Shown in pieces: positions 1 through 34,188 of a stretch of DNA of 64,000 bases (position 1 is the stretch's first letter; the number at the start of each line of letters is the position of its first letter). This DNA comes from Candidatus Obscuribacterales bacterium (GTDB taxonomy: Bacteria > Cyanobacteriota > Vampirovibrionia > Obscuribacterales > Obscuribacteraceae): positions 162,656-226,655 of the forward strand of contig JAKFVU010000080.1 of NCBI GenBank assembly GCA_021732025.1, written 5' to 3'. A program made the position numbers and the translations under genes. The notes under the pieces are model-generated. The model had not been told where the DNA came from, searched no databases, and saw nothing but the letters and a program-made list of their open reading frames with translations.

Positions 1-178
1 ATACCCATTTACATCTTAAATCTTACAGGAGTCCTTTTCAGCCACCAAACCAGCGCTATGCCCTAGTTCAGTGCCTCGAAAAGTCTTCAACCAAGACCTT
101 GGGTGATCTCACTTTTATTAACCATGGCGACGCGTTTTAAAAGACACACGCAGTTGCCCGCTAACGTTTAGGAGCATC

Positions 179-1039
179 ATGAACAATAATCAAAACCCTC
201 TGGGCCTCCCAGAGATGGTCGATCACGTCAAAAAGATGCTGACCGACCCCGAAATTCTGCGACTGTACGACGAAGGTGACAAGCTTTCCAGCTCGCAGAC
301 CAAACACGACGTCGGCCACGCTTTCTCAGTTCTCAACACGGCTCGCTATCTCACCGATGAACTGACCAAGCGTTTTCCCGGTTGCCTCAGCGACGAAGCT
401 CGTCTGGTGGTCATCCCGGCCGGCGCCTTCTTGCACGATATCGGCCGCGCCATCAGCGTTGATGACCATGCCGAAGCTGGCAAGAAAGTGGCACAAGACT
501 ACCTCAGCGCCAAAGACTTCCCCACCAAGGTGGTCTCTCGCGTTGCTGCTGTGGTCGCCTGCCACCGCTCCGACAAATTCCTGGGCATCTCCATCGAAGC
601 GTTGAAGAAGTTCCCGGAATTGGCCATTGTCGTTATCGCTGACAAGTGTGTCGGCGACGAAGACCGTGTGCGCCCCAACCGTGCCTTTGCCCTGCGCGCC
701 CTGCGTATGGTCGGCCTCGCTCGTACCAACTTCTGGAACAACGCCGAGCACGACCGGGTCAACTTCGCCATCAAAGACGCCCAGCTTCTGGTCGACTCTG
801 ACGACGCCTGCACGCCAGAACACGCCGGAGCGATTGTGCTCAAGCTGGTTCTCGACGAGAAGGTGGCGCCGGCATCCGAGCTGCTCTCGCTCTACGGCAA
901 ACGCTTCCACTCTTGTGGTCGTGCCGCCAAGAGCCTCGGTTTCGTCTTCCGTATCGAGGTCAACTCGGTGCGTTTCATGTACGACGACGTCACCAACCAG
1001 TGGCGGCCGCTTGAGTGCTTCAGTGTGCAACTGCCCTAA
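179..1039 (+). CDS. HD-domain metal-dependent phosphohydrolase family protein
   Basis: 286-aa ORF. HD-superfamily residues are visible (HDVGHAF, AFLHDIGR, ACHRSD). AGGAG lies just upstream of the ATG. Codons in this frame are strongly C/G-ending, so antisense ORF 326..1117 is a shadow. Confidence 0.65.
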   Translation: MNNNQNPLGLPEMVDHVKKMLTDPEILRLYDEGDKLSSSQTKHDVGHAFSVLNTARYLTDELTKRFPGCLSDEARLVVIPAGAFLHDIGRAISVDDHAEAGKKVAQDYLSAKDFPTKVVSRVAAVVACHRSDKFLGISIEALKKFPELAIVVIADKCVGDEDRVRPNRAFALRALRMVGLARTNFWNNAEHDRVNFAIKDAQLLVDSDDACTPEHAGAIVLKLVLDEKVAPASELLSLYGKRFHSCGRAAKSLGFVFRIEVNSVRFMYDDVTNQWRPLECFSVQLP

Positions 1040-1076
1040 TAAGGCATAAGCGCTTGAGGTAAGCAGGAGAAGGAAA

Positions 1077-1106
1077 GTTTCTGGCTCAGGCCAGAGACTT
1101 TTTCTT
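1077..1106 (+). terminator. Rho-independent terminator candidate after the HD-domain gene
   Basis: Stem GTTTCTGGC/GCCAGAGAC with loop TCAG, followed by TTTTTCTTC. The hairpin can extend to about 20 bp (1066..1110). Confidence 0.55.
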
Positions 1107-1226
1107 CTCCTATTCACTACTAATGCATTTAGTAAGATAGTTGTAGCAATTTAGGGCAGTAAAGAGATAGCTAAAAGCTGCGGCCTAGTAGAATATATTT
1201 ATTGCCGAAGGAGCGACTCAAAAAGA

Positions 1227-1802
1227 GTGTCACTTGTAAACGACATCTGGAAAATCTATCGCGCCTCAGCCGAGTCGTGTGTTAAGGCTGGTCAATACAC
1301 CGATGCCGAGCGCCTTTGGCTAGCGGCCTTAGAAGTGGCAGAAGACTACGGTCCAGATAACGCGATGCTAACCACCTCTTTAGAGGGTTTAGCCGAAGTG
1401 TTTTGGTATCAAGGCAAACACGAATTCGCTGCTCCTATCTGTCGGCGCCTGCTGAGATTGTACGAACAAAAACTTGGGCATCATCATCCAGACGTCGGCA
1501 CCATGGCCTACAACTTGGCCTTGCTCTATCACTCGTGGGGCAAATACGTCGAAGCTGAGCCATTTTATAAACTGTCTATGTCAATCAAAACGCGCGTTCT
1601 CGGCGGTCGTCACCCTGAGGTTGTCAGTCTTCTAGGTAACTACGCCGACCTTCTACTGATGCTTGATCGGGTGGAAGAAGCCAGAGAACTCAAAGCACTT
1701 TCTGAAAAAGTCAAAGCTACCAGCTGGCGTAAAACCGGAAATTGGCAAGCCATGCCAGCTGCAGCAGAGTCAGAAACACTTTCCAACCCAAGTCCTACTT
1801 AA
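1227..1802 (+). CDS. TPR-repeat protein (kinesin-light-chain-like TPR)
   Basis: 191-aa ORF with a GTG start. Repeated helical-pair units, e.g. AYNLALLYHSWGKYVEAEPFYKLSMSI. Its TAA stop abuts the next ATG (TAAATG). Confidence 0.7.
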   Translation: MSLVNDIWKIYRASAESCVKAGQYTDAERLWLAALEVAEDYGPDNAMLTTSLEGLAEVFWYQGKHEFAAPICRRLLRLYEQKLGHHHPDVGTMAYNLALLYHSWGKYVEAEPFYKLSMSIKTRVLGGRHPEVVSLLGNYADLLLMLDRVEEARELKALSEKVKATSWRKTGNWQAMPAAAESETLSNPSPT

Positions 1803-3920
1803 ATGACTTTCGGATTAACGGGCTGGCTTAAGTCCCAGCATCGCAACATCGATTATGAAATACCGCTTTGGTATCCCAGCAAAGAGCACCCGGACAGCCG
1901 TGAATGGCTTAGTACAAACGGTCTGGGCGGATACTCTATGGGAACTGTTTCTGGCATGAACCGCAGGCGTTACCACGCCAGCCTAGTAGCCGCCCTCACT
2001 CCGCCGGTAGACAGAAAAGTTGTGCTGTCGCGCATTGAAGAATTGGTGACCATCAATGGCAAAGCTTATGACTTGGCCACCAATTCCTGGGCATCAGGGG
2101 TGGTATCACCGACCGGTTACAAAAAGCTTGAATGTTTCACAACCTTGCCGACACCAACTTGGGTCTATGAGCTTGACGGGCACTACCTAATCAAACGTCA
2201 GGCTCTAACTTACGGCAAAAATGAATTATTCTGCGGCTATACTTTTTTGCCCGAAAACGACAACGATACTCCTGAGGTCAAGCTCACAACCCGCTTTCTT
2301 GTTGGTTTTCGCGACTTTCATGCAGCAGTAAAAGGGTCGTCTGATGACCGCTTCCCTCAATTTGTATCGCCCAATCAAACCATGATCATTCTCAATGAAA
2401 GTGGCCACAGACTTTGCCTGACCTGGGCTAGTGGTCGCTATGAAACTGAAAAACAGTGGTGGTGGGATTACAACTGGCCAGATGAAACTGCCCGCGGTGA
2501 GCCCGATCGCGAAGATCTGTTTTTGGTTGGCACTGTCACTAGCACATTGACCAATGGTCAAGAATTTAGCGTCGGCGCCAGTTTTGAGCAAGTGATCCAA
2601 AACCCCAATTGTTTCAATGCCGTTGAACGACTGATTGAAAGGCAAAATAGACTGATCAATCGGGCCAGCTTGCCTCGCTCGCAAAAGACCGACATGTTGA
2701 TTCTGGCCTGCGATCAAATGATTGTTCCTGACGTTTTTGCCCCCGCAGCCAACACTGCCGGAAGTATCGGTGCCGATAGTGAAAGCGATCGCCTTTCGGT
2801 AATTGAAGGCTATCCCTGGTTTAATGATTCCGGTCGAGCGGCTTTACAGTCGCTTCCTGGCTTAGCTCTGACCACTCGTCGTTTCAGAGACAGCAAAGCA
2901 ATTCTAATGGCTTTTTCAGAGCGACGCCAAAATGGTCTAATTGCCAACCGCACACTCGACCCTGTCAAGAAAACTCGACTGGTTTTCGCCAGCGCAGACG
3001 TTAGCTTGTGGTATGCCTGGGCTCTTTATCACCACTATCGCATCACCAAAGACAAAGAACTTGTCACAGCTCTGATACCTGTTTTGCTTGATACCTTCAA
3101 TTGTTTTAGCGCCACTACTGGCGATATCAAAGTCGACGCTGACGGTCTGCTCAATACTGGTTCTGCCACCGAAGAGTATAGTTGGATGGACGCTAAGATT
3201 GGCGACTTACCAATCACACCAAGAGCCGGCAAAGCAGTCGAGCTAAACGCGCTCTGGTACAACTTCTTAGAAACCATTCTTTTTCTAGACAAAGAGGTCC
3301 AATTAGAGCTGCCAGAGCGTGAAAAGATCGCAGCCGCTTCCGAAAAAGCCAAACTTTCGATGACTAAATTTTGGAATGAAGACAAACAGTGTCTCTTTGA
3401 TGTTATTGAAGCTCGCACTCCGTCTGGACACAGTAATAAAGGGCATGATGATGCCATTCGCCCCAATCAGCTCTTAGCGGTCTCTCTGCCGTTTAGAGCC
3501 TTTACTAAACCGCAAGAACGGGCAATCCTGACGATCATAGAAACCGAGTTGCTCACGCCCACTGGTCTGCGTACATTGGCAGTTAACGACGCCCAGTATC
3601 AAGGAGTTTATGGCTGCGGTTTTCAGCACGCAGACCAGTACCATAGAGATCTTTCGTATCACCAAGGCACAGCTTGGACCTGGCTCATTGGCAGCTATTT
3701 CGAAGCCCTAACCAATGTCTTTGGCACCCAAGCCGAGAGTATTGGTCGTGTTAAAGTTTTGCTTCAACCGTTTCTTGCTCACCTCACCGAAGAAGCTTGT
3801 CTCGGCTCAATTTCTGAGATTTTCGACGGCAGCAGACCGCATCTGGCCAAAGGTTGCCCAGCGCACGCTGTTGCTATCGCCGAATGTATGCGCTGGCAGG
3901 CCTGGCAGCTTAAGCAATAG
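1803..3920 (+). CDS. glycogen debranching enzyme (amylo-alpha-1,6-glucosidase, bacterial/archaeal GDE type)
   Basis: 705 aa. N-terminal NGLGGYSMGTVSGMNRRRYHA and C-terminal YHQGTAWTWLIGSYFEA match the conserved motifs of this family as I recall them. Confidence 0.75.
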   Translation: MTFGLTGWLKSQHRNIDYEIPLWYPSKEHPDSREWLSTNGLGGYSMGTVSGMNRRRYHASLVAALTPPVDRKVVLSRIEELVTINGKAYDLATNSWASGVVSPTGYKKLECFTTLPTPTWVYELDGHYLIKRQALTYGKNELFCGYTFLPENDNDTPEVKLTTRFLVGFRDFHAAVKGSSDDRFPQFVSPNQTMIILNESGHRLCLTWASGRYETEKQWWWDYNWPDETARGEPDREDLFLVGTVTSTLTNGQEFSVGASFEQVIQNPNCFNAVERLIERQNRLINRASLPRSQKTDMLILACDQMIVPDVFAPAANTAGSIGADSESDRLSVIEGYPWFNDSGRAALQSLPGLALTTRRFRDSKAILMAFSERRQNGLIANRTLDPVKKTRLVFASADVSLWYAWALYHHYRITKDKELVTALIPVLLDTFNCFSATTGDIKVDADGLLNTGSATEEYSWMDAKIGDLPITPRAGKAVELNALWYNFLETILFLDKEVQLELPEREKIAAASEKAKLSMTKFWNEDKQCLFDVIEARTPSGHSNKGHDDAIRPNQLLAVSLPFRAFTKPQERAILTIIETELLTPTGLRTLAVNDAQYQGVYGCGFQHADQYHRDLSYHQGTAWTWLIGSYFEALTNVFGTQAESIGRVKVLLQPFLAHLTEEACLGSISEIFDGSRPHLAKGCPAHAVAIAECMRWQAWQLKQ

Positions 3921-3954
3921 GCATATTAAGAGACTGACAAATTAGTAGTGAAAA

Positions 3955-5715
3955 ATGAAGACCGGCGGGTATGAAAATATAGCCGTCCTTTCCTTACCAT
4001 TTTTCTGTTTTCTGGAGCGCATGTTCAAACCGAATTCGAATTCAGGACGAGGGCCTCAGGCAAGCACGCCTCAGACAGCCGCTCCCGGAAATAATAGTGC
4101 CCCCCAACGGCTGCCGCAATTATGGAATCCACCTACCTTTGAAGACATTGCCCAACTGCTCGGTCTGGCGCAAAAGCACAGCGGCAGAGCAGTTGAATTA
4201 CCCTTTTCTGTGCCTGGCAATGACACCCTTTATCAAATAAGAGTGGTTCAACCGGACAATAGTGATCCTGAATGGACATTTTTATCAGGAACATTATCTG
4301 GGCTCTCAACAGTTTGGAGCATTCCTTGCATCGACTTGCAGCTCGTTCATAGCTTGGTCGAATCAGAATCGACTGGGCGAGACTCGGTTGACCTCATTTC
4401 TTCTAATAGCTTTAACCGCTCTACTACCGGAAATATAGCCTTTCCCAGCGCTGAAGTTGTGGAACAGTCAACCAGCCAGACCATGAGTGGTGCCGCAAAT
4501 TTGATGCAATCAGTGGCTGCAAACAACAATCAAGAATCTACGGCCGCAAGAGAAGCGCCTGCGGTGCAAGTGCAGGGTCAGCAACAAGCATCTCTTGAAG
4601 GTGATCTAGAAAAGCTCAACTTACCCGCTGTTCTGCAATCGCTTTCACTGAGCAAAATGACAGGGCGTCTTGGCATTGCAAGTGTTTTTGGTGGTGCCGA
4701 CATCTTTTTAGTTGACGGCAATCCGGTTCACGCCACCACTGGTGAAACAAAAGGTGATCACGCCATAATTGAAACTCTGCTCTGGCCGAGCGGAAAATTC
4801 AAATTCTTTGAACAAGAAAAATGTGCTGATTACACACTAACTAAACGCTTAGAAACGCTGCTGATGGAAGGCTTTGCCTTACTTGATCAACACAACTATT
4901 TAAAGAATGCCGGTCTCAATATGGACACATATTTGAAGCAGGCTTATCGCAATTTATCAGAGATGCAATTCGAGCAGCTTGCCAGCCGGGGTGCACCGGT
5001 CAATATGACCATGCAAAAAGATTTCTATCTTGAAATTGACAGTCAAGTGACTCTCTACGAACTCTTACTGCGCATGCCACTAGCGAAGGCTGACTGGGTG
5101 CCTGTGGTTTACAACCTCGTTTCAGTTGGCTTAGTGCGCCTCTCAAACGAGGTGCAAAAAAAGGAAGTTGCTGAGCTTATCGACAAAGACTTAGATGAGC
5201 TGGCCATTGCTGCCGCCATCAAGCCACTGACACGATTAGAGACCGATGTCTTTACTTATCCTGTTTTTCAATATTTTCTCAAACAAGAAATAGCTCGCTA
5301 CAGTGTTGATGCCAAAGCATTTACTTTATTGGTATTCGACTTGCTCATCGACAAACCTAGTGGTCAAGAAAAAATGCCACTGACCGCCGCTAAAATTGCT
5401 CTCGAGAGAGTTAGAGGTGTAAAGCGGGAGGTCGACATACTTGGACATTTTGAAACTTTCGACTATGCCATTATTTTGCCTCAGACCGCAACTCGATCGG
5501 CTGCAATCGTGGCACAACGTATTTTAGAGAGAATAAACGGAGAAGCTATTTCAGCTCTTGGTGGAAGCAATGGACAAATAAACATTGCCTTTGGCTTAGC
5601 GGCCTTTCCCCAAGACGGCAAATCAGCAGGTGCCTTAATGGCAGCAGCAGCCGAAGCTAAGAAACACGCGCGTAAAACCAGTATCGCCATCGTGGAGTAC
5701 AAAGCCATGACTTAA
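3955..5715 (+). CDS. PATAN/DUF4388-domain protein with C-terminal degenerate GGDEF domain (RxxD I-site retained)
   Basis: DUF4388-like segment: GDLEKLNLPAVLQSLSLSKMTGRLGI...GNPVHATTGETKGDHAIIETLLWPSGKFKFFEQE. The C-terminal GGDEF fold (FTLLVFDL..., INIAFGLAAFPQDG, AAEAKKHARK) has ETFDY in place of GG(D/E)EF. REVD sits exactly 5 residues upstream of that position. The true start may be the ATG at 4021. Confidence 0.7.
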   Translation: MKTGGYENIAVLSLPFFCFLERMFKPNSNSGRGPQASTPQTAAPGNNSAPQRLPQLWNPPTFEDIAQLLGLAQKHSGRAVELPFSVPGNDTLYQIRVVQPDNSDPEWTFLSGTLSGLSTVWSIPCIDLQLVHSLVESESTGRDSVDLISSNSFNRSTTGNIAFPSAEVVEQSTSQTMSGAANLMQSVAANNNQESTAAREAPAVQVQGQQQASLEGDLEKLNLPAVLQSLSLSKMTGRLGIASVFGGADIFLVDGNPVHATTGETKGDHAIIETLLWPSGKFKFFEQEKCADYTLTKRLETLLMEGFALLDQHNYLKNAGLNMDTYLKQAYRNLSEMQFEQLASRGAPVNMTMQKDFYLEIDSQVTLYELLLRMPLAKADWVPVVYNLVSVGLVRLSNEVQKKEVAELIDKDLDELAIAAAIKPLTRLETDVFTYPVFQYFLKQEIARYSVDAKAFTLLVFDLLIDKPSGQEKMPLTAAKIALERVRGVKREVDILGHFETFDYAIILPQTATRSAAIVAQRILERINGEAISALGGSNGQINIAFGLAAFPQDGKSAGALMAAAAEAKKHARKTSIAIVEYKAMT

Positions 5716-5812
5716 AAACATATGGCCAACAGGCATGTAAAGTGATCTTTTGGCGTACTATTGCTGCCATTAGATATAATCCCCCTCCTCTCAGAGTGTA
5801 ATTTAGCCACAG

Positions 5813-6400
5813 ATGGCTCTAGTCAATTACGGCACCAAAGAAATAACATTCAAGCTCGTATATTACGGCACAGGTTTGGGCGGCAAAACCACCAATCTGA
5901 AAGTGATATACAGCCAGCTCTCGCCGCAAACGAGGGGTGAATTGGTTAGTCTCGCCACAGAGACAGAACGAACACTATTTTTTGACTTTATGCCACTGGA
6001 TCTCGGCTTGATCAATGGTTTCAAAGCTCGCATTTCAATGTACACAGTGCCTGGGCAAGAAGAATATAACAAGAGCCGCAAATTGATTTTGCGCGATGTC
6101 GATGGCATTGTCTTTGTTGCCGATTCAAGCATTGTGCGCTCGGAAGAAAACCAAGCTTCTTTGAAGAACATGATGGATAACTTGCAAGAGTACAAACTTA
6201 CACTGCAAGACATTCCTTGGGTTCTTCAATACAACAAGCGCGACATCAGCAATATGATGACCGTTGAGCGTATGGAAGCAGAACTGAACAAAATGGGCGT
6301 ACCTGCATTTGAAGCCGTTGCTTTAGAAGGTAAAGGAGTATTCGCTACTCTTAAGGCCATTACCAAAATGATGCTCAATCGCGCCAAAGGCGACGATTAG
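5813..6400 (+). CDS. mglA: MglA-family Ras-like small GTPase
   Basis: 195 aa, alignable along its whole length with Myxococcus MglA as I recall it. P-loop GTGLGGKTT, intrinsic Arg in TERTLFFDF, MglA-specific TVPGQ in place of DxxGQ, and NKRD (G4). Confidence 0.85.
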   Translation: MALVNYGTKEITFKLVYYGTGLGGKTTNLKVIYSQLSPQTRGELVSLATETERTLFFDFMPLDLGLINGFKARISMYTVPGQEEYNKSRKLILRDVDGIVFVADSSIVRSEENQASLKNMMDNLQEYKLTLQDIPWVLQYNKRDISNMMTVERMEAELNKMGVPAFEAVALEGKGVFATLKAITKMMLNRAKGDD

Positions 6401-6775
6401 CAAGCAGTGAAATCAACTGTAAAAAAGACGTGAAAGTTACAGCTCAAGCGACAAAGGCTTGAGAAATAAGCATTCAATAACGATGCAGATACGCTCAGCT
6501 TGCGCGATCTTGGCAACCGCGCCGGGCAGCGAGAGCTAGCACCTGTATGCCTTTGAAGATGCATTAAGGTCTGTAAGTTACATTCGTTAACACAATTGCG
6601 GCGAGATCGCCTTTAAGAAAGCAAATAGACTTAGGAGTCATTTTCTCTTTCCCAACCAATCAACTTCACGCTTCAAATACAGCAAGCATTACTGCCATTG
6701 CCAAAACAGCCAGCATCTCTCGCTGTCTCGATCTGACTGACTGTATATCTAGCAGTGATTTCTAGCGCTAGGGAG

Positions 6776-6802
6776 TTGACGAATGTGACGAATTTGACGA
6801 CG
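6776..6802. repeat. three tandem 9-bp direct repeats (TTGACGAAT GTGACGAAT TTGACGACG)
   Basis: Read directly from the sequence, about 50 nt upstream of the ATG at 6850. Immediately preceded by the palindrome CTAGCGCTAG (6762..6771). Confidence 0.9.
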
Positions 6803-6849
6803 GCTCTTAGAGCCTTCAGCCACTAGAAGAATATAACCATGAGGTCAAC

Positions 6850-7923
6850 ATGACCCGAACCACCATATGCGGTATCACCGCATTACTTTTCTGCACCATC
6901 ATCGCCCTTGTTTTGTACCTGCAACCTGGTTCTCACCAGCCTGATTTTGCTCCAGGAACCACAGTGCGAGTTTTCTTGCCCGTCGAAGGCAGCACAGAAA
7001 AAGTTCGCTACGAGCGCTACGCCAGCGATCGAGTGAGCCGCACAGTCACTGACATTGAGTACGTCGACGGCGGCAGCGAACAAATAACTTACTGGGGCGA
7101 CAACAATTTGCGGCGCACCTCGATCAAATACTTCAACAATCAGGTTAAGAGCAAAGCCACCTTTGACCACCAGACCGGTAAGTACTACACGAGCCATCAG
7201 GTCTACCGCCTAGACGGCACCCTGGAACGCGCCGGAGAGCTGCTTACCGACGGTCGCTATCAGACTAGCTATTATTGGAGCGACGGCAAAACCTTATCGC
7301 GCCAGCGCCTCTTCAATCCGAATCGAGTCTTTCTCTCCGAGAAGCTCTTTCGCGAAGACGGATCAATCTTAGCTGACGTGGTGCAGGCCCAATCTAATCA
7401 GAGAGAAATAGTGCTCTATTGGCCCAATGGCGCTCGCCAAGCCAACTACAGCACAAATCTGGTGAACGGCGCTCGCGGAGTTTTCTACGGCGAAGACGGA
7501 GTGACAATCGTCTGTGAGTTCTACCGCTCATATTGGCTCGCCGAAGAACTTTACCTCAACTCAGCAGGCAAGGTCTGGCAGCAGCGCCTCACTTACTCAG
7601 GCAACGGCTCTCAGACCATCAACCTCTATGCAGCTGACGGTTCACTGGCAGCGGTACAGATGTGGAAGTTGCGCCCAGCATCAAATGGCAAGCCCGCTTA
7701 CAAGCTCTTGTCGTCGATAGCGCTCTATCGCAACAGCGACAAACCCTATCGCATCATCACTGCCACCAACGGCAAGCTTGATGGTGTCAACGAGGCCGGC
7801 CAAGATGCAACAGGTCAGCAAATCGCAGACCCAGTCTTACTGGTTGAACCAGCTAGCAGCACCATTCCAGAACCAGGCTTGACTGAGCGTGGTGCACCTA
7901 AGCTTGTCTATGACTATGAGTAA
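6850..7923 (+). CDS. membrane-anchored repeat protein (possible MORN/YwqK-like beta-hairpin repeats)
   Basis: 357 aa. N-terminal hydrophobic helix (ICGITALLFCTIIALVLYL) followed by recurring Y/W-x-DG/NG units (YYWSDGKTL, LYWPNGARQ, FYGEDGVTI, LYAADGSLA). The family call is tentative. Confidence 0.5.
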   Translation: MTRTTICGITALLFCTIIALVLYLQPGSHQPDFAPGTTVRVFLPVEGSTEKVRYERYASDRVSRTVTDIEYVDGGSEQITYWGDNNLRRTSIKYFNNQVKSKATFDHQTGKYYTSHQVYRLDGTLERAGELLTDGRYQTSYYWSDGKTLSRQRLFNPNRVFLSEKLFREDGSILADVVQAQSNQREIVLYWPNGARQANYSTNLVNGARGVFYGEDGVTIVCEFYRSYWLAEELYLNSAGKVWQQRLTYSGNGSQTINLYAADGSLAAVQMWKLRPASNGKPAYKLLSSIALYRNSDKPYRIITATNGKLDGVNEAGQDATGQQIADPVLLVEPASSTIPEPGLTERGAPKLVYDYE

Positions 7924-7937
7924 ATAAATGAGCCTTG

Positions 7938-7967
7938 AGTCGGGTCCGCGTCAATGCGGATCCGACT
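7938..7967. terminator. hairpin between convergent genes (possible bidirectional terminator)
   Basis: 12-bp stem AGTCGGGTCCGC/GCGGATCCGACT (one G-U pair), loop GTCAAT. No clear U-tract. Confidence 0.4.
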
Positions 7968-8127
7968 TCACGGCCACTCAATTGAGCAGATATAAAAAAA
8001 GAGCGAGTATAACTATATCTTTTAGTATAAAGTCAAAAAAAGACAATGCGCAGGGTTGAGAAGCAAAACAATTCTATTGAATTGTTCGCCCCCAGCCCCT
8101 TGCACTGTCCCAAAAGCACTTAACTAA

Positions 8128-9930
8128 TTAAGGCATTTTGCTTGGTTCCACTTTCTTCACAGCTGCAGCTGGAGCGGAAACTTTCACCATCCAATCAACC
8201 AGAGCATCGCCGTCGGGGGCCCCCCAGCCGCTCGGATGGTCCCACTTCGGTCCCGCCTGATAGCCCGGATATCCAGCACCATGGCCGGCACCATTGTTGC
8301 CTTTGGTGACGTCATAAAAGTACTTGCCATAGTCAGCCGAGTTGCCGATGCGATAGACATACGGATTGGCAGAGCCAACACGTTTGCCCGCAGCTTCGAC
8401 AGTCAGCCCCCAGAGCGCAGCCCAAGAAGGCGCCGAGGCACTAGTGCCACCGATGCGCGACCAGTTGCCCTGGAAGTAGAACGAATAGCCGGTATTCGGA
8501 TCAGCGTTCATTGAGACGTCAGCACTGGCACGCTTGTCGCCACCAGGCAAACCGCTACCAACCTGCCAGCTCGGGCGCGACCAGTGGTCGGAAACACCGC
8601 CACCAGAACCAGTCCAGGCCGGTTCGGCTGTGCGCACGCCGTCCTGCTGGGTCATACTCGTGCCACCAACCGCGGTGAAGCGAGGATTTGACGCTGGATA
8701 GTCGACGGCCCACTTGGGCACTTCTTTGCCCTTGCTCTTGATCTTGCAATCGTAAGCACCGTCGTCTCCGCTGGAGACAAACAAGGCAATACCCTGAGCA
8801 GCCAGTTGTTTGAAGACCATGTTCTCGGTCTTCATCATCAGCCAACCAGTGCCCCTTTCACAAAGTCCCCAACTGACCGACATCACCGACGCTTCGTTAT
8901 CAATGGCGACCTGGTTAAAGGTCAGGGCAAAGTTGACGAAACTCGGATTGACAGCCATGTACATCAGCACATCGGCGTCAGGCACCTGTGAGCTGAGTAG
9001 CTGCAAATCGAGAGTAGTCTCTTCTTCGAATTTGCCACTCAAGCCGTTGATAGGGCGGTCAATCAATTGGCCACCACGAACGATGCCATGACGCTTCCAG
9101 TAAGCTTCGATGTCTTTGATGTCGTAACCGTAAGCCGTGGCAATGGCAATTTTCACGCCCTTGCCACTGTAGACCTTGGCCGGAACATTCTCATTGTTGC
9201 TGTTGGGAAAGTTGTAGACCGTGGCAATGTCTTGCGGTGTGTGCGCCTGAGACTGAGCACGCTTCGCCGGCGCTTTGCTGTGAGCAATGCGGCTTTCCAT
9301 CTGAGCATAAGTGTTGAGGCCAATGACAGACTCGACCACATCTTTGAGGTGAATCGGTACCACCGGGTCACGATCATTGCTCAAGTAGAACTTTGCCGCC
9401 GTTGAATCAGGAGCATTTGCTTGACCAATGGTCGATTGGTTGACTATGGTGTCGACCGAATACTCGTTGATGGTGACGTTGAAGGCTTTTTCCAACTGAG
9501 CAACAGTACCTTCAGCATGAATCATCAGGCGGTTCTTAGGCACTGACTTAATCTTCAGGCCCTGACTGGTAAGGTAGCGCACGGTCTCGTCCACGTCGTG
9601 AGTGGCTGGCGAGAAGTGAGCGATGAACTGGTCGGTGCTGAGAAACTGCTGATATTGCGGCGAATCAGGATTCTGCAAACTATCAAGCAGGGCGTCGAGA
9701 TCGGCCTCGTCACGAACTTTGAGGCCGACTAGAATTTCCAGGCGGCTCTCAGGATTGGCGTGCCTGACCAACTGCGACTCACCGAGAATTTCGGGAGTGT
9801 TACCAGAAAGAGTGACACCACCGGTGATGACAGAGAAAGTAGGACCGCGTTGCACAAGCCACACGGCGGTGACAGCCACAAATGTGAGTGCCAAGATGCG
9901 CAATAGCGCTTTGATTGAAACAAACTGCAT
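8128..9930 (-). CDS. secreted S53 (sedolisin/kumamolisin-like) serine peptidase with pro-domain
   Basis: 600 aa. N-terminal signal/anchor helix, a pro-kumamolisin-like N-terminal region, and the catalytic-serine motif GGTSASAPSWAALW. AGGAG lies upstream of the ATG. Confidence 0.8.
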   Translation of the reverse strand: MQFVSIKALLRILALTFVAVTAVWLVQRGPTFSVITGGVTLSGNTPEILGESQLVRHANPESRLEILVGLKVRDEADLDALLDSLQNPDSPQYQQFLSTDQFIAHFSPATHDVDETVRYLTSQGLKIKSVPKNRLMIHAEGTVAQLEKAFNVTINEYSVDTIVNQSTIGQANAPDSTAAKFYLSNDRDPVVPIHLKDVVESVIGLNTYAQMESRIAHSKAPAKRAQSQAHTPQDIATVYNFPNSNNENVPAKVYSGKGVKIAIATAYGYDIKDIEAYWKRHGIVRGGQLIDRPINGLSGKFEEETTLDLQLLSSQVPDADVLMYMAVNPSFVNFALTFNQVAIDNEASVMSVSWGLCERGTGWLMMKTENMVFKQLAAQGIALFVSSGDDGAYDCKIKSKGKEVPKWAVDYPASNPRFTAVGGTSMTQQDGVRTAEPAWTGSGGGVSDHWSRPSWQVGSGLPGGDKRASADVSMNADPNTGYSFYFQGNWSRIGGTSASAPSWAALWGLTVEAAGKRVGSANPYVYRIGNSADYGKYFYDVTKGNNGAGHGAGYPGYQAGPKWDHPSGWGAPDGDALVDWMVKVSAPAAAVKKVEPSKMP

Positions 9931-9997: not shown

Positions 9998-11090
9998 TTA
10001 GACTTTGGGCAGAGCGCAAGCACTGCCGTTCATCGTTTCCAGCACGGCAACACGCTCAGAAACGGGCGGGTGAGTGAGCTGGAGGTAGCGCCAGAAAGCC
10101 TTGACCTTCTGCCAAACCGTGGTGGCCTGTACTTCGACACGCACGTCGAAAATCGGGTCGATGGTCATGATCGGACGTAGTGCTCGATAAAGCTCAGCTT
10201 CACGGCCATGCGGGCGGTTCTTCTCGACGTATGCGACCAGCTTGATCAGTGCCGAAGCAAGATCGCAAGGATGGCCAGTCATGAGAGAGCCAGTGGCATC
10301 AGCGGCAGATTCACGCGAACGCATGACAAACATCTGCACTACTTTGGTCAGCTGGCCAGTCACCTGAAAAATCAGGAACATGACGACGTATTCGAGGATG
10401 CCCCCGAAGAAGCCCTGGGGCTGCTTCTGACCGTTGACCTTAAGGCCAAAGCTGGGCTTGAAGATGCGAATGCCGGAGAGCAAAAGGCGCACGCCGGCAT
10501 CGGTGATCATGAAGAAAATCATCGAGAGCACAGACAGCATCGAGTTGATACCGACGTCGTAGTTCTTGACGTGGCCGAGTTCGTGAGCAAAGACTGCTTC
10601 GATTTCTGCATCGGTCATGCCGGTGAGAAAGAGGCCTTTGGTGGCAGCGACGACCGCTTTGCGGTGAATCGGACCAGTGGCAAAGGCGTTGGGAAGCGGA
10701 TTGTCAGAGACATAGACCGGAGGTTTGAACTTCAGACCACTTTTGGCGTAAACCCGATCAACAATGGCCAAGAGCCGCTGGTGCTCTGGGTTGTTCGGAT
10801 CAGCAGGAGTGGACTTGGTCATGGCGATAGCGATTTTGGCGCTGAACCACCAGCTCAGAACAGGAACCAAGAACCAGAGCAGGCCGAAGCCTAGCTGGAA
10901 ACGGTAGCTGTAGCCGAAGCAGGCCGAAGCCTAGCTGGAAACGGTAGCTGTAGCCGAAGCCGGCAAAAGCAGCGAAAATCAAAGCGCCCATGGCACCATA
11001 ACCAAGCAGGGTTTTGAGCCAAGTGACAAGTAAGCGGCGACGCATCTGAGAGTAATTCGGGTCGTCGGGCCCGATTGAGCGGTGAGACAT
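9998..11090 (-). pseudogene. htpX: htpX-like M48 zinc metalloprotease, reading frame broken by a 40-bp tandem duplication
   Basis: The N-terminal TM part (MSHRSIG...FAGFGYSYRFQLGFGL, with GGAG upstream of the ATG at 11090) and the catalytic part (HELGHVKNYD) lie in different frames. Deleting one 40-bp copy joins them as ...GFGLLWFLVPVLSWWFSAK... Confidence 0.75.
10881..10960. repeat. perfect 40-bp tandem duplication (2 copies)
   Basis: 10881..10920 is identical to 10921..10960 (AGGCCGAAGCCTAGCTGGAAACGGTAGCTGTAGCCGAAGC). Each unit starts and ends with GCCGAAGC microhomology. The length is not a multiple of 3. Confidence 0.97.
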
Positions 11091-25833: not shown

Positions 25834-26266
25834 GATTGGCTAAGTTTAGCAGTGCTCGCAATTAATTAGTGCCAGCAAGAGATTAAGACCTAGCGCTAGC
25901 TTAACTATCTTCTTTAGGTTAAACCACTTGAGATATACCTACGGGTGAGAATAAATCTCCCCGTTTAGTATGGCTTTTGAGTGTTTGCGAAATCTAGGGT
26001 GAAGGTTCTAACCCTCTTTCCTCAACTCAACATCTACAAGCCCCCTATCTAATACCCACACTCTTCATCTCTCTTGCGACAACCCCCACGGCTGTTGCGT
26101 ATTGAGTCACGTTTTTGCCACTCAGTTATGAGCGCGCATAAATCTAGAAGTGCAAAGTTTAGCTAGGTTGTTTGCTGACCTGTTTTTTTGACGAAGGAAT
26201 TTCTTGTAAATGGGCACCAGCGGTGCTCATCAACGTTTCAACAACGAAATTAAAACGGAGAACACT

Positions 26267-28237
26267 ATGAACACGAATCATGGCATCAAGCCCGCTTACA
26301 TGGACAAGAGCGTCAGTCCCGGCGTCGATTTCAACCGCTTTGCCAACGGCACCTGGATCGACAACACCGAAATCCCCGCCCAGTATCCTCGCTGGGGCGC
26401 CTTCCTCATGCTGCGCGACCTCACTCTCGAGCAGACCCGCGTCATCCTCGAAGAGCTGGCCACCCGCGCTGACACGTTCGCCCCTGGCAGCATCGAGCAG
26501 AAGGTCAACGACTTCTACACCTCGGGCATGGACGAAGCCGCCATCGAAGCCGCCGGCATCAGCCCCATCAAGGCCGAACTGGCACGCATCAACGGCATTC
26601 GCACCCTTCGTCGCCTGGGCGATGTCATCGCACACCTGCACACTGTGGGCGTCGGCGGTGCTTTCGCTTTCGGCGCTTCGCCGGACGCCGACGATTCCAG
26701 CCAGATGATCGGCCACGCTCTGCAGTCGGGGATCGGTCTGCCTGACCGCGATTACTACCTCGGCCGCGACAAGAAGAGCAAGGAGCTGCGCCAGGCGTAC
26801 GTCAACATGCTCGCTCGCATGTTCGAGCTGATCGGCGAAAAGCCCAAGCTTGCCCGTCGTCATGCCGAAAGCGTGCTCAAGCTCGAGACCGCCATGGCCA
26901 AGGCCTTCATGAGCAAGGAAGACCGCCGCGATCCGGACAAGACCAAGAACAAGATGACCATCGCTCAGTTCCAGGCCCTGGTGCCGAAGCTGGACGTGGC
27001 CCGCTACTTCAACAACATCGGCTGCCCGCCGATGGAGACGCTCAACGTCATGCAGCCGGCTTACTTCCAGGCGCTCAACAAGCTCTTGGGCAAGGTCTCG
27101 CTCAATGACTGGCGGGTCTATCTGCGTTGGCAGCTGATTCGCAGCTCCTCGTCGGCTCTGCCTGCGGCGTTCGGCGATGCTTCCTTCGAGTTCTACGGCA
27201 AGACCATGCAGGGCAGCAAGCAGCGCGAGCCGCGTTGGATGCGCATGATCTCGGCAACCAACGGCGCCCTCGGTGAAGCTCTCGGCCAGCTCTATGTGGC
27301 CAAGCACTTCAAGCCCGAGGCCAAGGCCAAGATGCTCGAGCTGATCGCGCTCCTCCAGGACGCTTTCCGCGACAGCATCAACGAGCGCACCTGGATGAGC
27401 GAGGAGACCCGCGTCAATGCGCTGGCCAAGCTCGACGCCTTCGTGCCCATGATCGGCTACCCCGACAAGTGGCGCGATTACTCCGAGCTGCACATCGACC
27501 GCACGTCGTTCGCCGCCAACTGCCTGCGCTCGGACGAGTTCGAGCACAAGGCTGACCTGGCCAAGATCGGCAAGCCGGTGGACCAGTCGGAATGGCACAT
27601 GACCCCGCAGACGGTCAATGCCTACTACTCGCCGCAATCCAACCGCATCGTCTTCCCTGCGGCGATTCTGCAAGACCCGTTCTTCGACCCGGAGGCCGAC
27701 TTCGCCTTCAACTGCGGCGGCATCTTGGTGGTCATCGGCCATGAAGAGTCGCACGGTTTCGACGACAAGGGTTGCCGCTACGACGGTCAGGGCAATCTGC
27801 GCAACTGGTTTGCGGAGGGCGACCTGGACAAGTTCATGGTGCTGATCAACCTGCTGAAGAAGCAGTTCGGTCAGTTCACTGTGGCGGGTGGCAAGAAGGT
27901 CAACCCCAACCTGGTTGCTGGCGAAGCTGCTGGTGACTTGGGCGGCATCAAGCTGGCTTTGCGGGTGCTGAAGAAGCACATCGCCAAGCACGGCATGACC
28001 ATCGACGCGAACGGCTACAACGACCTGCAGCGCTTCTTCATTGCCTTCGGGCAGATTTGGGCGTCCAAGGTCACTCCTCAGTACGAGGAACAGCAGGTGG
28101 CAACTGACCCGCACCCGCCGGCACAGTTCCGTGTCAACGGTACCCTCGCCCACTTGGCCGAGTTCGCCGAAGCATTCGGACTGCCCGACGATTGCCCGAT
28201 GATGCTGCCTCCGGCCGATCGCTGCGACCTCTGGTAA
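26267..28237 (+). CDS. M13-family zinc metallopeptidase (PepO/neprilysin-like)
   Basis: NAYYSPQSNRIVFPAAILQ, VIGHEESHGFDD (HExxH) and GEAAGDLGG. The ATG at 26267 is preceded by GGAGA. Codons are extremely C/G-ending, and antisense ORF 26159..28153 is a shadow. Confidence 0.85.
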   Translation: MNTNHGIKPAYMDKSVSPGVDFNRFANGTWIDNTEIPAQYPRWGAFLMLRDLTLEQTRVILEELATRADTFAPGSIEQKVNDFYTSGMDEAAIEAAGISPIKAELARINGIRTLRRLGDVIAHLHTVGVGGAFAFGASPDADDSSQMIGHALQSGIGLPDRDYYLGRDKKSKELRQAYVNMLARMFELIGEKPKLARRHAESVLKLETAMAKAFMSKEDRRDPDKTKNKMTIAQFQALVPKLDVARYFNNIGCPPMETLNVMQPAYFQALNKLLGKVSLNDWRVYLRWQLIRSSSSALPAAFGDASFEFYGKTMQGSKQREPRWMRMISATNGALGEALGQLYVAKHFKPEAKAKMLELIALLQDAFRDSINERTWMSEETRVNALAKLDAFVPMIGYPDKWRDYSELHIDRTSFAANCLRSDEFEHKADLAKIGKPVDQSEWHMTPQTVNAYYSPQSNRIVFPAAILQDPFFDPEADFAFNCGGILVVIGHEESHGFDDKGCRYDGQGNLRNWFAEGDLDKFMVLINLLKKQFGQFTVAGGKKVNPNLVAGEAAGDLGGIKLALRVLKKHIAKHGMTIDANGYNDLQRFFIAFGQIWASKVTPQYEEQQVATDPHPPAQFRVNGTLAHLAEFAEAFGLPDDCPMMLPPADRCDLW

Positions 28238-31370: not shown

Positions 31371-33398
31371 TTACTTCTTGCCGCCGAACATGGCCGAGAT
31401 GCTCTGCCAGACGGAAGCGACTGCCCGCGAGATGGGGCCAAGCAAGGCAGCGATGGCGATCACGAGCGGAGCCACGAGCTTGTAGATGAAGCTCGCGATC
31501 GGCTTGACGATGGCGAGAACCAGGCGATAGACGCTGGCAAACTGACGCCAGAAGCCTTCGTACACCTTCCACATGAAGTCGAAAGTGTTGCTCAGCAGCG
31601 GAGCCAGCCAGCCGGTGATGACCAGGTTGGCGAGCGGGCGGATGGCCAGGTAGACGGCCGGCGCGACGAAACCAGCGATGATGCTGGCCGACGTGCAAGC
31701 GACAATCACGGTCGCGATGACGTTGCCGCCAGAGACACCGAAGGCCCAATGCGCGCTTGCGAGCAGAGCGACGAAACCGCCACCAGCTGCCAGCGCCTCA
31801 GCACCCCACTTGTAGAAGAGCTTGCCGAGCAGCATGAACAGGTTGATACCGACGAAGACGGCCAAGGCCGAGTTGAGCCAGAAGCCGAAGCTGAGGTAGC
31901 CCATCGCCAGAGGCAGAGCCTGCCAGATGGCGACGCCGATCACCGAGATGTTGAGCACGTGACCGAACATGCCCGAGTAGGGCGTGGTGTCGTCGAAAGC
32001 CGAACGCTGGATGTCGCGAATGGCCTTACGCAGCTTGAGGAAAGCAGTCACAGCCGAGCCGTGCACCGAATCAAGCAGAGCACCCACGGGAGCCGAAGCC
32101 CACGAAGTGAGAGCGCGCACGATCAGGTAGAAGAACGGGTAGGCGATCAGGCCAGTGGCGAAAGTGACAGCAACGCTGGCCGCAGCCAACCAACCACCAA
32201 CGATACCAACCAGACCCGGCAGCACGAACCACGAAGCGACGCCAGCGGCAACCGACAGCGTGACACCGATGATCGGGTTGCCAGCCGACTTGTTCACCAC
32301 TTCACGCAGCGCTTCCACGTAGCTGTAGAGCACCGAAGCGGCCACTGCAACCCACACCAACACCGGCGGCAGATGAATCAGACCAGCGACGTAGTAAGCC
32401 ACCGCACCGAAGAGCAGCGCCACAACGATGTTCATCAGGTTGTGATAGAACTTGCGGAAATCTGCGTTCTTCTCGTCGTCATAGACGGCTTCGAGCAGGT
32501 TCTTCCAACCGCGCAGAACGGCTTCGGCCAGACCGCCGGAGAGCAGAGCGATGATGCCCGGGATGACGTAGATGAAGCCGACCACAGCCACAGCAGCTGC
32601 CGCAGCATAGAGGCCGACACCAGCGAAACCAGCAAGCAGAGCCGTCTTGGTGACGATGGCCCAGGTGGCAGCGCCACTGAGGACCGCAATCAGATGACCT
32701 TCCTTGCCTTCGTCCTGCAGCTGGTACAGGGGTACCAGCACGAGGGTGGTGGCGGTGAGCGCAAGCAGGCCAGCGAGAGCCTGGTTGACGTGGTAGTCCC
32801 ACAGTACCGTCGGCACCAGGGCGATCAGGTAGGTGTAGCTCGTGTAGGCGACGAAAGCGCCCAGAGCAAGAGTGGCCACAGCAACAACGACAGTGAGCAC
32901 ACCGACGGCCCAGCGCTTGCGACGCTTGGCACCTTCAGCAGGCGGGGTGTCGAGGATGGTGTTCCAGAGCGCAGACGCACCCGGAAACTTGCAAGCCACG
33001 GAAACCAGACCCTTGAACATCGGCGCAGCCGCGTTCTTGGCGATCTTGCGAGTGAGGTCGAGGAACTTCTCACCCAGCTCCCAGAGGGGCTTGAAGACAC
33101 CGAGGTAGGCCAGGGGCCAGACGATGCCGCCGGTGAGCCAGAAACCGAGAATGGAACCGAGGCCCCACCAGATAAACGACACGCCGTGGGAAAGACCGAA
33201 ATCGGCAGCCGAGACTGCGGCGAGGCACGAGAGGCCGAAGCCGACGATGCAACTGACGATGATGCTCTGCCACTTGCCGCCGTACGCCTTCTTGGACAGG
33301 AACTTGGACGGTTCCCAGATCAGCATGAAGAGTGCGACGAAGGGGTAGAGAGCGAACTTGAGGGCCTTCATGAGGCCGCTTTCACTTGTAGTGTTCAT
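31371..33398 (-). CDS. large polytopic membrane protein, family unknown
   Basis: 675 aa from the ATG at 33398 (GGAGA upstream). It has many hydrophobic helices (my rough estimate is about 20) interspersed with short amphipathic/basic segments. Strong C-ending codon bias. The plus-strand ORF 31365..33422 is a shadow. Confidence 0.7.
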   Translation of the reverse strand: MNTTSESGLMKALKFALYPFVALFMLIWEPSKFLSKKAYGGKWQSIIVSCIVGFGLSCLAAVSAADFGLSHGVSFIWWGLGSILGFWLTGGIVWPLAYLGVFKPLWELGEKFLDLTRKIAKNAAAPMFKGLVSVACKFPGASALWNTILDTPPAEGAKRRKRWAVGVLTVVVAVATLALGAFVAYTSYTYLIALVPTVLWDYHVNQALAGLLALTATTLVLVPLYQLQDEGKEGHLIAVLSGAATWAIVTKTALLAGFAGVGLYAAAAAVAVVGFIYVIPGIIALLSGGLAEAVLRGWKNLLEAVYDDEKNADFRKFYHNLMNIVVALLFGAVAYYVAGLIHLPPVLVWVAVAASVLYSYVEALREVVNKSAGNPIIGVTLSVAAGVASWFVLPGLVGIVGGWLAAASVAVTFATGLIAYPFFYLIVRALTSWASAPVGALLDSVHGSAVTAFLKLRKAIRDIQRSAFDDTTPYSGMFGHVLNISVIGVAIWQALPLAMGYLSFGFWLNSALAVFVGINLFMLLGKLFYKWGAEALAAGGGFVALLASAHWAFGVSGGNVIATVIVACTSASIIAGFVAPAVYLAIRPLANLVITGWLAPLLSNTFDFMWKVYEGFWRQFASVYRLVLAIVKPIASFIYKLVAPLVIAIAALLGPISRAVASVWQSISAMFGGKK

Positions 33399-33981
33399 AG
33401 TTTCTCCAGAGTTTCTGCGTGAACAGAGTTGTTCTGTCCGTGCAGTGGTAAAGAGAAGCTTCAAACCAGGCACAAATAACAAACACACTCGCCGTCCGTA
33501 ACAAAGCAGTGACTACCCACATGCTTGTTGCATCAGTTACGGAGGTTGCTAGCGGTAAGGCTGTGGTGTTTGTCGTTGATGGCGGCTTAAAGTTTCTCGA
33601 GGAAATGGTTGATGGGTAGTTCCCAAGAGACTAGATAAAACTATGGGCGCAAAGCTAGTGAATACTAGGAAGTGAGCCATATCTTAGATCATGAGCTATC
33701 GCTAGCATTAGTGATATATCTACTGCATATCACGACAACAGAGGGCCTGATGCGTCTGCAAAACAGAGTAAACACTAGGCGACACCAATTCCAGAAGCGA
33801 TTAGCGATTAGCGAACAGATGACAGAGGCGATTAGCAGAAGCTAAGTCGAGGCTAACCTAGCGCGGCTAGGTGAAGTAGCAGAACTTAGTGCCGCAATCC
33901 AAAGACTGGTGGCAATATGAAAATCAGCTCAGCTAGGCGCTGAAGCTAAGTCTAGATTAGGCTGAAGCCTGGTTAGCAGTA

Positions 33982-34188
33982 CTAATCTGAACGTGAGCTG
34001 GCATTGATGCCAGGCTGCTCGGTCTGAGCAGTGATACTGCTTTGCGATGGCTTCCAAGCCACCTCGCATACGCCTTTGGCGCAACGGGAGTTCGATTGGA
34101 CCTGATGATTGTTAGCGGCAACGATATCGTTTGATCTTTCGGTCTTAGGTTGCCCGAAATAATAGTGTCCAAGGGATTCCGAGTTCAT
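33982..34188 (-). CDS. small hypothetical protein (68 aa)
   Basis: This is the only ORF in a roughly 1-kb gap that has a good SD (AGGAAGGAATCGCAG-ATG). No homology recognised. Confidence 0.35.
   Translation of the reverse strand: MNSESLGHYYFGQPKTERSNDIVAANNHQVQSNSRCAKGVCEVAWKPSQSSITAQTEQPGINASSRSD

Follow-up and report, generated by a model that had tools for sequence, protein, structure and literature searches.

How a second messenger might gain access to a polarity module built on the small GTPase MglA is an open question; work on such modules has, to our knowledge, been almost confined to Myxococcus, Thermus, and Bdellovibrio, and in Bdellovibrio the link that leads from cyclic di-GMP (c-di-GMP) through CdgA and a tetratricopeptide repeat (TPR) protein to MglA is indirect and unresolved. 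This question is raised by a locus in the 64,000-nucleotide stretch of DNA analyzed here (hereafter designated the window; positions 162,656 to 226,655 of contig JAKFVU010000080.1, forward strand, assembly GCA_021732025.1), which derives from Obscuribacterales, a lineage of the non-photosynthetic Melainabacteria/Vampirovibrionia and a soil or freshwater relative of cyanobacteria. A gene at 4021..5715 on the plus strand of the window encodes a protein composed of a conserved N-terminal domain, a PATAN (DUF4388) domain, and a degenerate GGDEF domain (hereafter designated PATAN–dGGDEF), and is followed on the same strand by a gene for an MglA-type GTPase (designated MglA-1). As described below, the PATAN–dGGDEF gene and a dedicated MglA paralogue form a conserved and specific pair. 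We assign an even chance to the interpretation that PATAN–dGGDEF is a c-di-GMP-sensing, PatA-like adaptor that works with this paralogue.

A preliminary description of this DNA had proposed a PATAN–GGDEF fusion encoded by an open reading frame (ORF) at 3955..5715. The fusion exists, whereas its start has been corrected: all homologues begin with MFKPNSN, corresponding to Met23 of the mechanically delimited ORF, and the real start is therefore the ATG at 4021, which is preceded by GGAG at 4013–4016. The product comprises 564 residues; residue numbers given in this text nevertheless follow the mechanical ORF (3955..5715). In searches with hidden Markov models (HMMs), residues 215–313 matched Pfam DUF4388/PATAN (PF14332) with E = 1.2e-14 and 54.9 bits against a cut-off of 25, spanning positions 1–121 of the 122 in the model, and PatA_N is found as a precomputed match on all homologues. 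The PATAN core is encoded at 4597..4893 (+), with its conserved helical part running on to about nucleotide (nt) 5150. Column conservation was computed on 40 full-length relatives with 30–96% identity, among which 14 columns in residues 211–400, the PATAN region, are invariant. The degenerate GGDEF domain (residues 431–575; 5245..5679, +) was delimited with TIGR00254 and is also recognized by Pfam and Foldseek. An AlphaFold2 model of the full protein, built with 24 homologues (mean pLDDT, 70.9), consists of three folded parts, namely the N-terminal domain, PATAN with its helical continuation, and GGDEF, with a disordered low-complexity linker between. The C-terminal part of the model superposes on solved GGDEF domains (Foldseek E = 3.7e-9; TM-score of 0.83 to 3ign and 0.80 to 4iob), by which the GGDEF fold of the C-terminus is confirmed at the level of the model.

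The N-terminal domain, with an alpha-beta4-alpha2 arrangement (about residues 50–150; 4102..4404, +), is conserved family-wide, including W57, P60, W107, G112, W121, and D127, among others. When modelled alone, it gave pLDDT values of 84–94 (about 90 in the core). A Foldseek comparison of this model with the PDB yielded no match at E <= 0.001, and the best-ranked structures are unrelated. The possibility that the domain is a hidden Roadblock/MglB-like module was rejected, since the separate model has neither a Roadblock fold nor a significant PDB match. Moreover, no Response_reg (REC) domain was detected in the protein by Pfam down to E = 0.1, so that it is not a PATAN–REC regulator of the PatA type. 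Collectively, the product is a cytoplasmic signalling adaptor consisting of the N-terminal domain, the low-complexity linker, PATAN, and GGDEF.

The register of the C-terminal motifs was established by phmmer against PDB chains and by MAFFT with PleD and four canonical GGDEF proteins, which concur with each other; the Pfam envelope gives the same placement. R491-E-V-D494 (5425..5436, +), the RxxD of the primary inhibitory, c-di-GMP-binding I-site, aligns with PleD R359-A-I-D362, and ETFDY (E500–Y504; 5452..5466, +) takes the place of GG(D/E)EF, aligning with PleD G368-G-E-E-F372. D494 and E500 are separated by five residues, the canonical RxxD-to-GGDEF spacer, just as the preliminary description had placed REVD on the I-site five residues ahead of ETFDY. 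H498 aligns with PleD R366, ahead of the GGEEF motif, and R522 (5518..5520, +) is the equivalent of PleD R390, the second I-site arginine, in both the phmmer and the MAFFT alignment. The features by which degenerate GGDEF domains are recognized as c-di-GMP receptors, RxxD at the correct spacing and the second arginine, are thus both present. The equivalents of the guanine-binding PleD residues N335 and D344 are lost through a 4-residue deletion in the MAFFT alignment. Because of this deletion, the missing N335/D344 equivalents, and the replacement of GG by ET, the aligned domain is almost certainly unable to make c-di-GMP.

The I-site residues are strongly retained. Of the 45 aligned family sequences, 44 have RxxD, the exception being a distant protein (NDVD; locus L018), and R491 and D494 are two of only nine invariant columns among the 156 of the GGDEF domain in the 40 relatives, with Arg at the R522 position in 92.5% of them. 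Among the 136 alignable cluster representatives of the family described below, RxxD occurs in 114 and GG[DE]EF in none. Judging from these alignments, RxxD is under strong purifying selection.

The gene downstream, mglA-1 (5813..6400, +; 195 residues), begins 97 nt after the PATAN–dGGDEF gene, and its description as a canonical MglA in the same orientation was borne out. MglA-1 matched solved MglA structures over the full length with E = 1.2e-67 (Thermus thermophilus) and 4.7e-67 (Myxococcus xanthus), and carries all the hallmarks of group 1 as defined by Wuichet & Søgaard-Andersen 2014, that is, GTGLGGKTT with G21 and K25, the intrinsic R53 in TERTLFFDF, T78 and Q82 in TVPGQ, and NKRD. A search with this protein retrieved PATAN-linked orthologues with 84–98% identity and, in addition, a second large group of 192-residue proteins (designated MglA-2) with 72–74% identity, often labelled as Obscuribacterales or Melainabacteria. 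The gene for MglA-2 sits between rpmB and recG (at 10001–10579 in five loci, L029–L033). Both copies occur together in SZAS LIN-3 (L012 and L033, JAFEAV01 contigs), on one contig of 7,020,619 bp (L015 and P0108), and in REEB67 (P0056 and P0104). MglA-1 shares 55–58% identity with the M. xanthus and T. thermophilus MglAs, compared with 62–64% for MglA-2, and conservation within the order is 84–98% for MglA-1 and 94–97% for MglA-2. Since the same genomes also hold this closer-to-canonical protein, MglA-1 is, as judged from these identities, a lineage-specific, diverged duplicate. The term 'orphan MglA' used in the preliminary description therefore stands insofar as no mglB is adjacent, and does not stand insofar as a second, more canonical MglA is encoded near recG in these genomes.

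The pair proved to be conserved in a survey, of the kind suggested in the preliminary description, in which one genome per GTDB species was scanned. It yielded 17 loci, all from Obscuribacterales/Melainabacteria metagenome-assembled genomes or mislabelled bins, including Ca. Obscuribacter phosphatis and one 6.69-Mb chromosome; 'Cyanobacteria bacterium REEB67' and 'Candidatus Obscuribacterales bacterium' are among the organism labels on the homologues. The PATAN–dGGDEF gene is followed by a co-oriented mglA, at a spacing of 73–175 nt, in all of the Obscuribacterales loci (16 of 16). Moreover, the pair persists in two distant loci (L019 and L020), where the PATAN protein is only 33–34% and MglA 67% identical and all other neighbors differ; the MglA encoded at L019 carries the MglA-1 signature residues EIT[FY]KLV, FDFMP, and PGQEEY. 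These results show that the association of PATAN–dGGDEF with its dedicated MglA paralogue is both conserved and specific.

If PATAN–dGGDEF is indeed a c-di-GMP-sensing adaptor, its dead GGDEF domain would serve as the input, with c-di-GMP bound at the I-site as in PopA, PelD, or CdgA, and PATAN would serve as the output, by analogy with the PatA-type regulators that bind PilB1/PilC. PATAN alone has been reported to bind PilB1/PilC and to reverse phototaxis, acting as an output domain (bioRxiv 10.1101/2021.06.11.447907). MglA-1 would be the partner switch, and the adaptor may recruit, localize, or be controlled by MglA-1 in its GTP-bound form, whereby the c-di-GMP level would be coupled to a machine that is polar or associated with a surface, for instance type IV pili. 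The protein would then correspond to a PatA-type regulator in which REC has been exchanged for a c-di-GMP-sensing domain and which is dedicated to its own MglA copy. Several considerations weigh against this interpretation. Binding, interaction, and every functional step in it are inferred, and type IV pili are presumed in Obscuribacterales; the other points concern the coupling of the two genes and the sensing of c-di-GMP, and are taken up with the corresponding alternatives.

The first alternative is that the two genes are adjacent without functional coupling, the PATAN–dGGDEF gene being one copy from a general c-di-GMP adaptor family whose synteny with mglA was inherited in a narrow lineage; we regard this as possible, though unlikely. 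The family is large: when 1.84 billion cluster representatives were searched exhaustively with a profile, at least 389 representative clusters were obtained at E <= 1e-30, most of them matching from the N-terminal domain through GGDEF. Its organism-named members all belong to Obscuribacterales or Melainabacteria, save one labelled '[bacterium]'. Thus, the fusion is not unique to this locus. The preliminary description had called the fusion and its pairing with mglA uncharacterized, and no description of them was found in the literature searched. The family members stand in varied gene contexts: those of other sampled subfamilies are in tandem with another PATAN protein or beside acyltransferase/polysaccharide genes, with no mglA neighbor, and five distant members also have no mglA nearby. 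The mglA link is therefore a trait of one subfamily and not of the architecture; in a rough neighbor-joining tree, which carries no support values, the two MglA-linked lineages share a superclade from which the mglA-less groups are separate.

In the core clade, synteny also extends past the pair. Genes for an HD-domain protein, a TPR protein, and a glycogen debranching enzyme lie upstream on the same strand wherever the locus reaches far enough, and kumamolisin-like and M48 peptidase genes often recur downstream, so that the 16 of 16 count partly reflects shared ancestry. In addition, a conserved intergenic motif, ATGTAAAGTGATCTTTTGGCGTACTAT (5735..5761, +), with a -10-like TAnnAT at its 3' end, separates the two genes. 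The window contains this single copy, against 0 matches expected by chance, and each of 11 related loci has the motif once, at the same intergenic position, although the spacer around it has diverged. From its sequence, the motif may be a promoter or operator for mglA-1, and mglA-1 may accordingly have a transcript of its own. Scans for promoters and terminators over positions 1–8200 gave counts not above those of shuffled controls and no terminator between the PATAN–dGGDEF gene and mglA-1.

Against an uncoupled adjacency stands the persistence of the pair through full turnover of the other neighbors in L019 and L020. Furthermore, MglA-1 was found only beside a PATAN–dGGDEF gene, both in the 16 of 16 loci and in these two, and a neighborhood of PATAN with MglA/MglB genes recurs across phyla (PMC4316618). 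Insertions into the block also spare the junction from the PATAN gene to mglA: in two genomes, SZAS LIN-3 (L012, 2512–3819) and REEB67 (L017, 8644–9981), a gene for a canonical GGDEF cyclase has been inserted on the same strand between the debranching enzyme and PATAN genes. The inserted cyclases, of 435 and 445 residues, scored 144 and 135 bits, contain GRSGGDEF and GRVGGDEF, respectively, with RxxD upstream, and have a 270-residue N-terminal region of no known identity.

The second alternative concerns the input: the dead GGDEF domain may be no c-di-GMP sensor but a dimerization or scaffold module, or may bind another nucleotide, RxxD being kept for structural reasons. The HMM scores for the domain are marginal, with 24.3 bits for Pfam GGDEF (PF00990; residues 489–574) against a cut-off of 23.8, and 34.3 bits for TIGR00254 (residues 431–575), under its cut-off of 37.4, and RxxD is lost in 16% of the alignable representatives and in the L018 protein. 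The replacement motif HFETFD[YF] is itself highly conserved in the 40 relatives (H498, 100%; E500 and D503, 97.5%), and this strong conservation suggests that the former active site has taken on a new function. On the other side, both I-site arginines and the aspartate are conserved far above the background of the domain. The active-type cyclase gene inserted alongside in two genomes places a probable synthase directly upstream of a probable receptor, whereby the role of c-di-GMP gains independent circumstantial support. Moreover, c-di-GMP reception through the retained I-site of a degenerate GGDEF domain is well established, as exemplified by PopA and PelD. CdgA of Bdellovibrio is a further receptor of this kind (PMC3983030). 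We therefore consider it rather unlikely that the domain does not sense c-di-GMP.

A third protein possibly associated with the adaptor and MglA-1 is the TPR protein encoded upstream (1227..1802, +; 191 residues; Pfam TPR_12, 1.3e-34) in the co-oriented block 179..3920. Its stop codon abuts the start of the debranching enzyme gene (1802/1803). The protein is more conserved than MglA, being 98–100% identical where the neighboring genes are 81–91% identical, and 90–94% identical where the PATAN protein is only about 50%. By analogy with Bd2492/SgmX, it may be a third component or binding partner of the module, although its membership is uncertain. TPR families match as many as 6 of the 49 other ORFs in the window, and because these genomes are so rich in TPR proteins, adjacency of a TPR gene is to be expected by chance; TPR genes near L018, L026, L027, and L019 were accordingly not used as evidence for a three-part module. 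At L019, no close homologue of the conserved TPR protein was found.

Whether MglA-1 has a cognate MglB was addressed with Pfam and with the M. xanthus MglB sequence (100% identical to PDB 6h5b_B) as the query. As the preliminary description had stated for the window, no Roadblock/LC7 domain was detected by Pfam down to E = 0.1 in its 20 small ORFs, nor was Roadblock among the best 25 of the 52 families matched by 49 further ORFs, a summary that gives weak support since it covers 25 of the 52. When every six-frame ORF from the window and from 28 related loci (460 kb) was searched with phmmer --max, nothing better than E = 1.3 was obtained, and a further 100 kb was searched in the same manner, the best E across both searches being 0.6–1.3. 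In total, about 0.56 Mb of Obscuribacterales DNA was covered, out of genomes of about 6.7–7 Mb. In the neighborhood of mglA-1 (±10 kb), no Roadblock gene is annotated by precomputed Pfam in L001, a complete genome, or in L019. An mglB beside another mglA copy, which the preliminary description had named as a finding that would speak against its proposal, was likewise absent within 10 kb of mglA-2 in five loci. The gap of 450–650 nt upstream of mglA-2 is non-coding; a hidden mglB in this gap was rejected, as its six-frame ORFs are short, unconserved, and without similarity to MglB. Thus, for neither paralogue is an MglB gene encoded within four genes of mglA, the distance that defines a coupled MglA/MglB, in the loci examined.

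The residues of MglA-1 bear on the same point. G21, R53, and Q82 are all kept, a set that is, by sequence, typical of MglB-coupled MglAs, and MglA-1 presumably needs some partner to reach a hydrolysis-competent state. G21 is retained in both MglA-1 and MglA-2. According to the survey as quoted by Milner et al. 2014 (PMC3983030), G21 co-occurs with MglB, and the MglA of Bdellovibrio, which lacks MglB, has S21.

It could be supposed that the adaptor binds MglA-1 directly and, on c-di-GMP, governs either the nucleotide state of MglA-1 or its availability, acting as a non-Roadblock GTPase-activating protein (GAP), a guanine nucleotide exchange factor, or a sequestering factor, forming with the TPR protein an MglB-independent switch. 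This would constitute a second-messenger-gated polarity switch, independent of MglB, in non-photosynthetic relatives of cyanobacteria, with a second MglA reserved for it; we consider this elaborate form doubtful. The claim of the preliminary description that PATAN–dGGDEF replaces MglB, as a c-di-GMP-gated GAP or other off-switch, fits the lack of Roadblock/MglB in the 64-kb window, near mglA-1 (about 10 kb), and near mglA-2 (10 kb, five loci), as well as the retention of R53, Q82, and G21, but is highly improbable, as the protein has no segment similar to any known GAP, its N-terminal domain has no Roadblock match, G21 is the state that co-occurs with MglB in the quoted survey, and the other sampled PATAN–dGGDEF subfamilies have no mglA partner. 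Furthermore, the DNA searched is a small part of the genomes, in which an unlinked mglB is possible, and divergent MglBs are hard to detect, as illustrated by a B. marinus protein with only 22% identity to M. xanthus MglB.

The interpretation of PATAN–dGGDEF as a c-di-GMP-sensing adaptor can be compared with several known systems. Counterparts in the sister lineage are the cyanobacterial PatA-type regulators (PatA, PixG, PixE, LsiR, and TaxP), in which PATAN is likewise followed by a C-terminal signal-receiving domain; they differ in carrying REC where PATAN–dGGDEF has the dead GGDEF domain with an I-site, and in lacking the extra N-terminal domain. With this exchange on the input side, the signal here would be c-di-GMP, not phosphorylation. 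An MglA gene is paired with the PATAN gene at this locus, unlike in the cyanobacterial Tax/Pix operons. PopA of Caulobacter and PelD of Pseudomonas have similarly lost GG(D/E)EF and kept RxxD, with a receptor rather than an enzyme role, which for PATAN–dGGDEF is predicted; however, neither PopA (REC-REC; a proteolysis adaptor) nor PelD (transmembrane and GAF domains; Pel synthesis) has PATAN or a GTPase partner. As in the MglA/MglB/RomR-RomX system of M. xanthus, MglA-1 belongs to group 1 and has both the intrinsic arginine finger and TxxGQ, and as with M. xanthus SofG, a second, specialized paralogue of the MglA family would serve a dedicated task. Unlike in the mglBA operon of M. xanthus, neither paralogue adjoins a Roadblock gene, and unlike SofG with its long extensions, MglA-1 is a plain 195-residue GTPase.

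Cyanobacterial PATAN–ComFB fusions, in which ComFB is a receptor of c-di-GMP/c-di-AMP (PMC12448109), resemble PATAN–dGGDEF in that PATAN is fused to a cyclic-dinucleotide receptor domain. The receptor fold differs, being here that of the GGDEF I-site, and no MglA association has been reported for the ComFB fusions. The prey-invasion hub of Bdellovibrio bacteriovorus, which consists of MglA (Bd3734), the TPR protein Bd2492/SgmX1, and CdgA (Bd3125) (Milner et al. 2014, PMC3983030; Remy et al. 2024, PMC11025332), shares with this locus an MglA without adjacent mglB, a degenerate GGDEF protein taken to be a receptor of c-di-GMP, and a TPR protein, which at this locus is known from co-location and extreme conservation. 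In contrast, the three Bdellovibrio genes are dispersed and CdgA has no PATAN, whereas at this locus PATAN and the receptor domain are parts of one protein, whose gene abuts mglA; moreover, Bdellovibrio has S21 and one MglA, and the Obscuribacterales have G21 and two MglAs.

In the literature searched, no publication was found connecting Melainabacteria or Vampirovibrio with MglA, nor one that unites 'degenerate GGDEF', 'I-site', and MglA. Thus, the components are all of known kinds, whereas their fusion, the pairing with a dedicated MglA paralogue, and how large the family is have apparently not been described before. A presumed c-di-GMP receptor is here fused to PATAN, a domain tied to the control of pilus motors, and its gene is locked to an MglA paralogue of its own, which would provide a compact two- or three-protein system for in vitro study of the connection between c-di-GMP and a small GTPase. 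The sister lineage of cyanobacteria carries two group-1 MglA paralogues, whereas the 2014 survey listed no group 1 for Cyanobacteria. It also has a large, so far unstudied family of PATAN–dead-GGDEF proteins, a parallel to the PATAN–REC regulators found in photosynthetic cyanobacteria.

The other genes of the upstream block encode the HD-domain protein (179–1039, +; Pfam/NCBIfam) and an archaeal-type glycogen debranching enzyme (1803–3920, +; Pfam/NCBIfam), which are probably syntenic passengers; the block is absent from L019. An assignment of the HD protein as an HD-GYP phosphodiesterase found no support, the protein giving a generic HD match and a weak NTP-transferase-family match. Downstream of mglA-1, positions 6850–7923 (+) encode a 357-residue protein with an N-terminal hydrophobic segment and repeated YxxDG-like units, which has no Pfam/NCBIfam match and is conserved at 46–71% in close relatives and absent from more distant loci.

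Some of the mglA-less family members have features of their own. Downstream of the PATAN–dGGDEF gene in L021 (11816–12382), L024 (2661–3341), and L027 (4170–4925), an unannotated protein of 188–251 residues is encoded; these proteins have a common N-terminal '(L/G)SWF' motif and no Pfam match, and may be an alternative partner family. L034 contains two PATAN-family genes in tandem (120–1697 and 1811–3334; 525 and 507 residues), which shows that local duplication has occurred within the family. The distant relative at L018 (9977–11998; 673 residues, 29% identity) has a long Pro/Ala-rich insert, and with NDVD it has lost the I-site arginine, GERGY standing at the position of the GG(D/E)EF motif; no mglA is encoded within 10 kb, and a TPR_12 gene lies divergently upstream.

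Elsewhere in the window, Rfam and tRNA scans of the whole 64 kb gave no matches, including in a 1.3-kb region (43664–44971) that contains no ORF of 70 residues or more on either strand. The local G+C content rises to 0.57–0.60 at 26001–28000, 32001–34000, and 48001–50000 against a background of about 0.46–0.50, and these stretches coincide with an M13 peptidase gene, a 705-residue ORF with no Pfam match, and a pyruvate phosphate dikinase gene.

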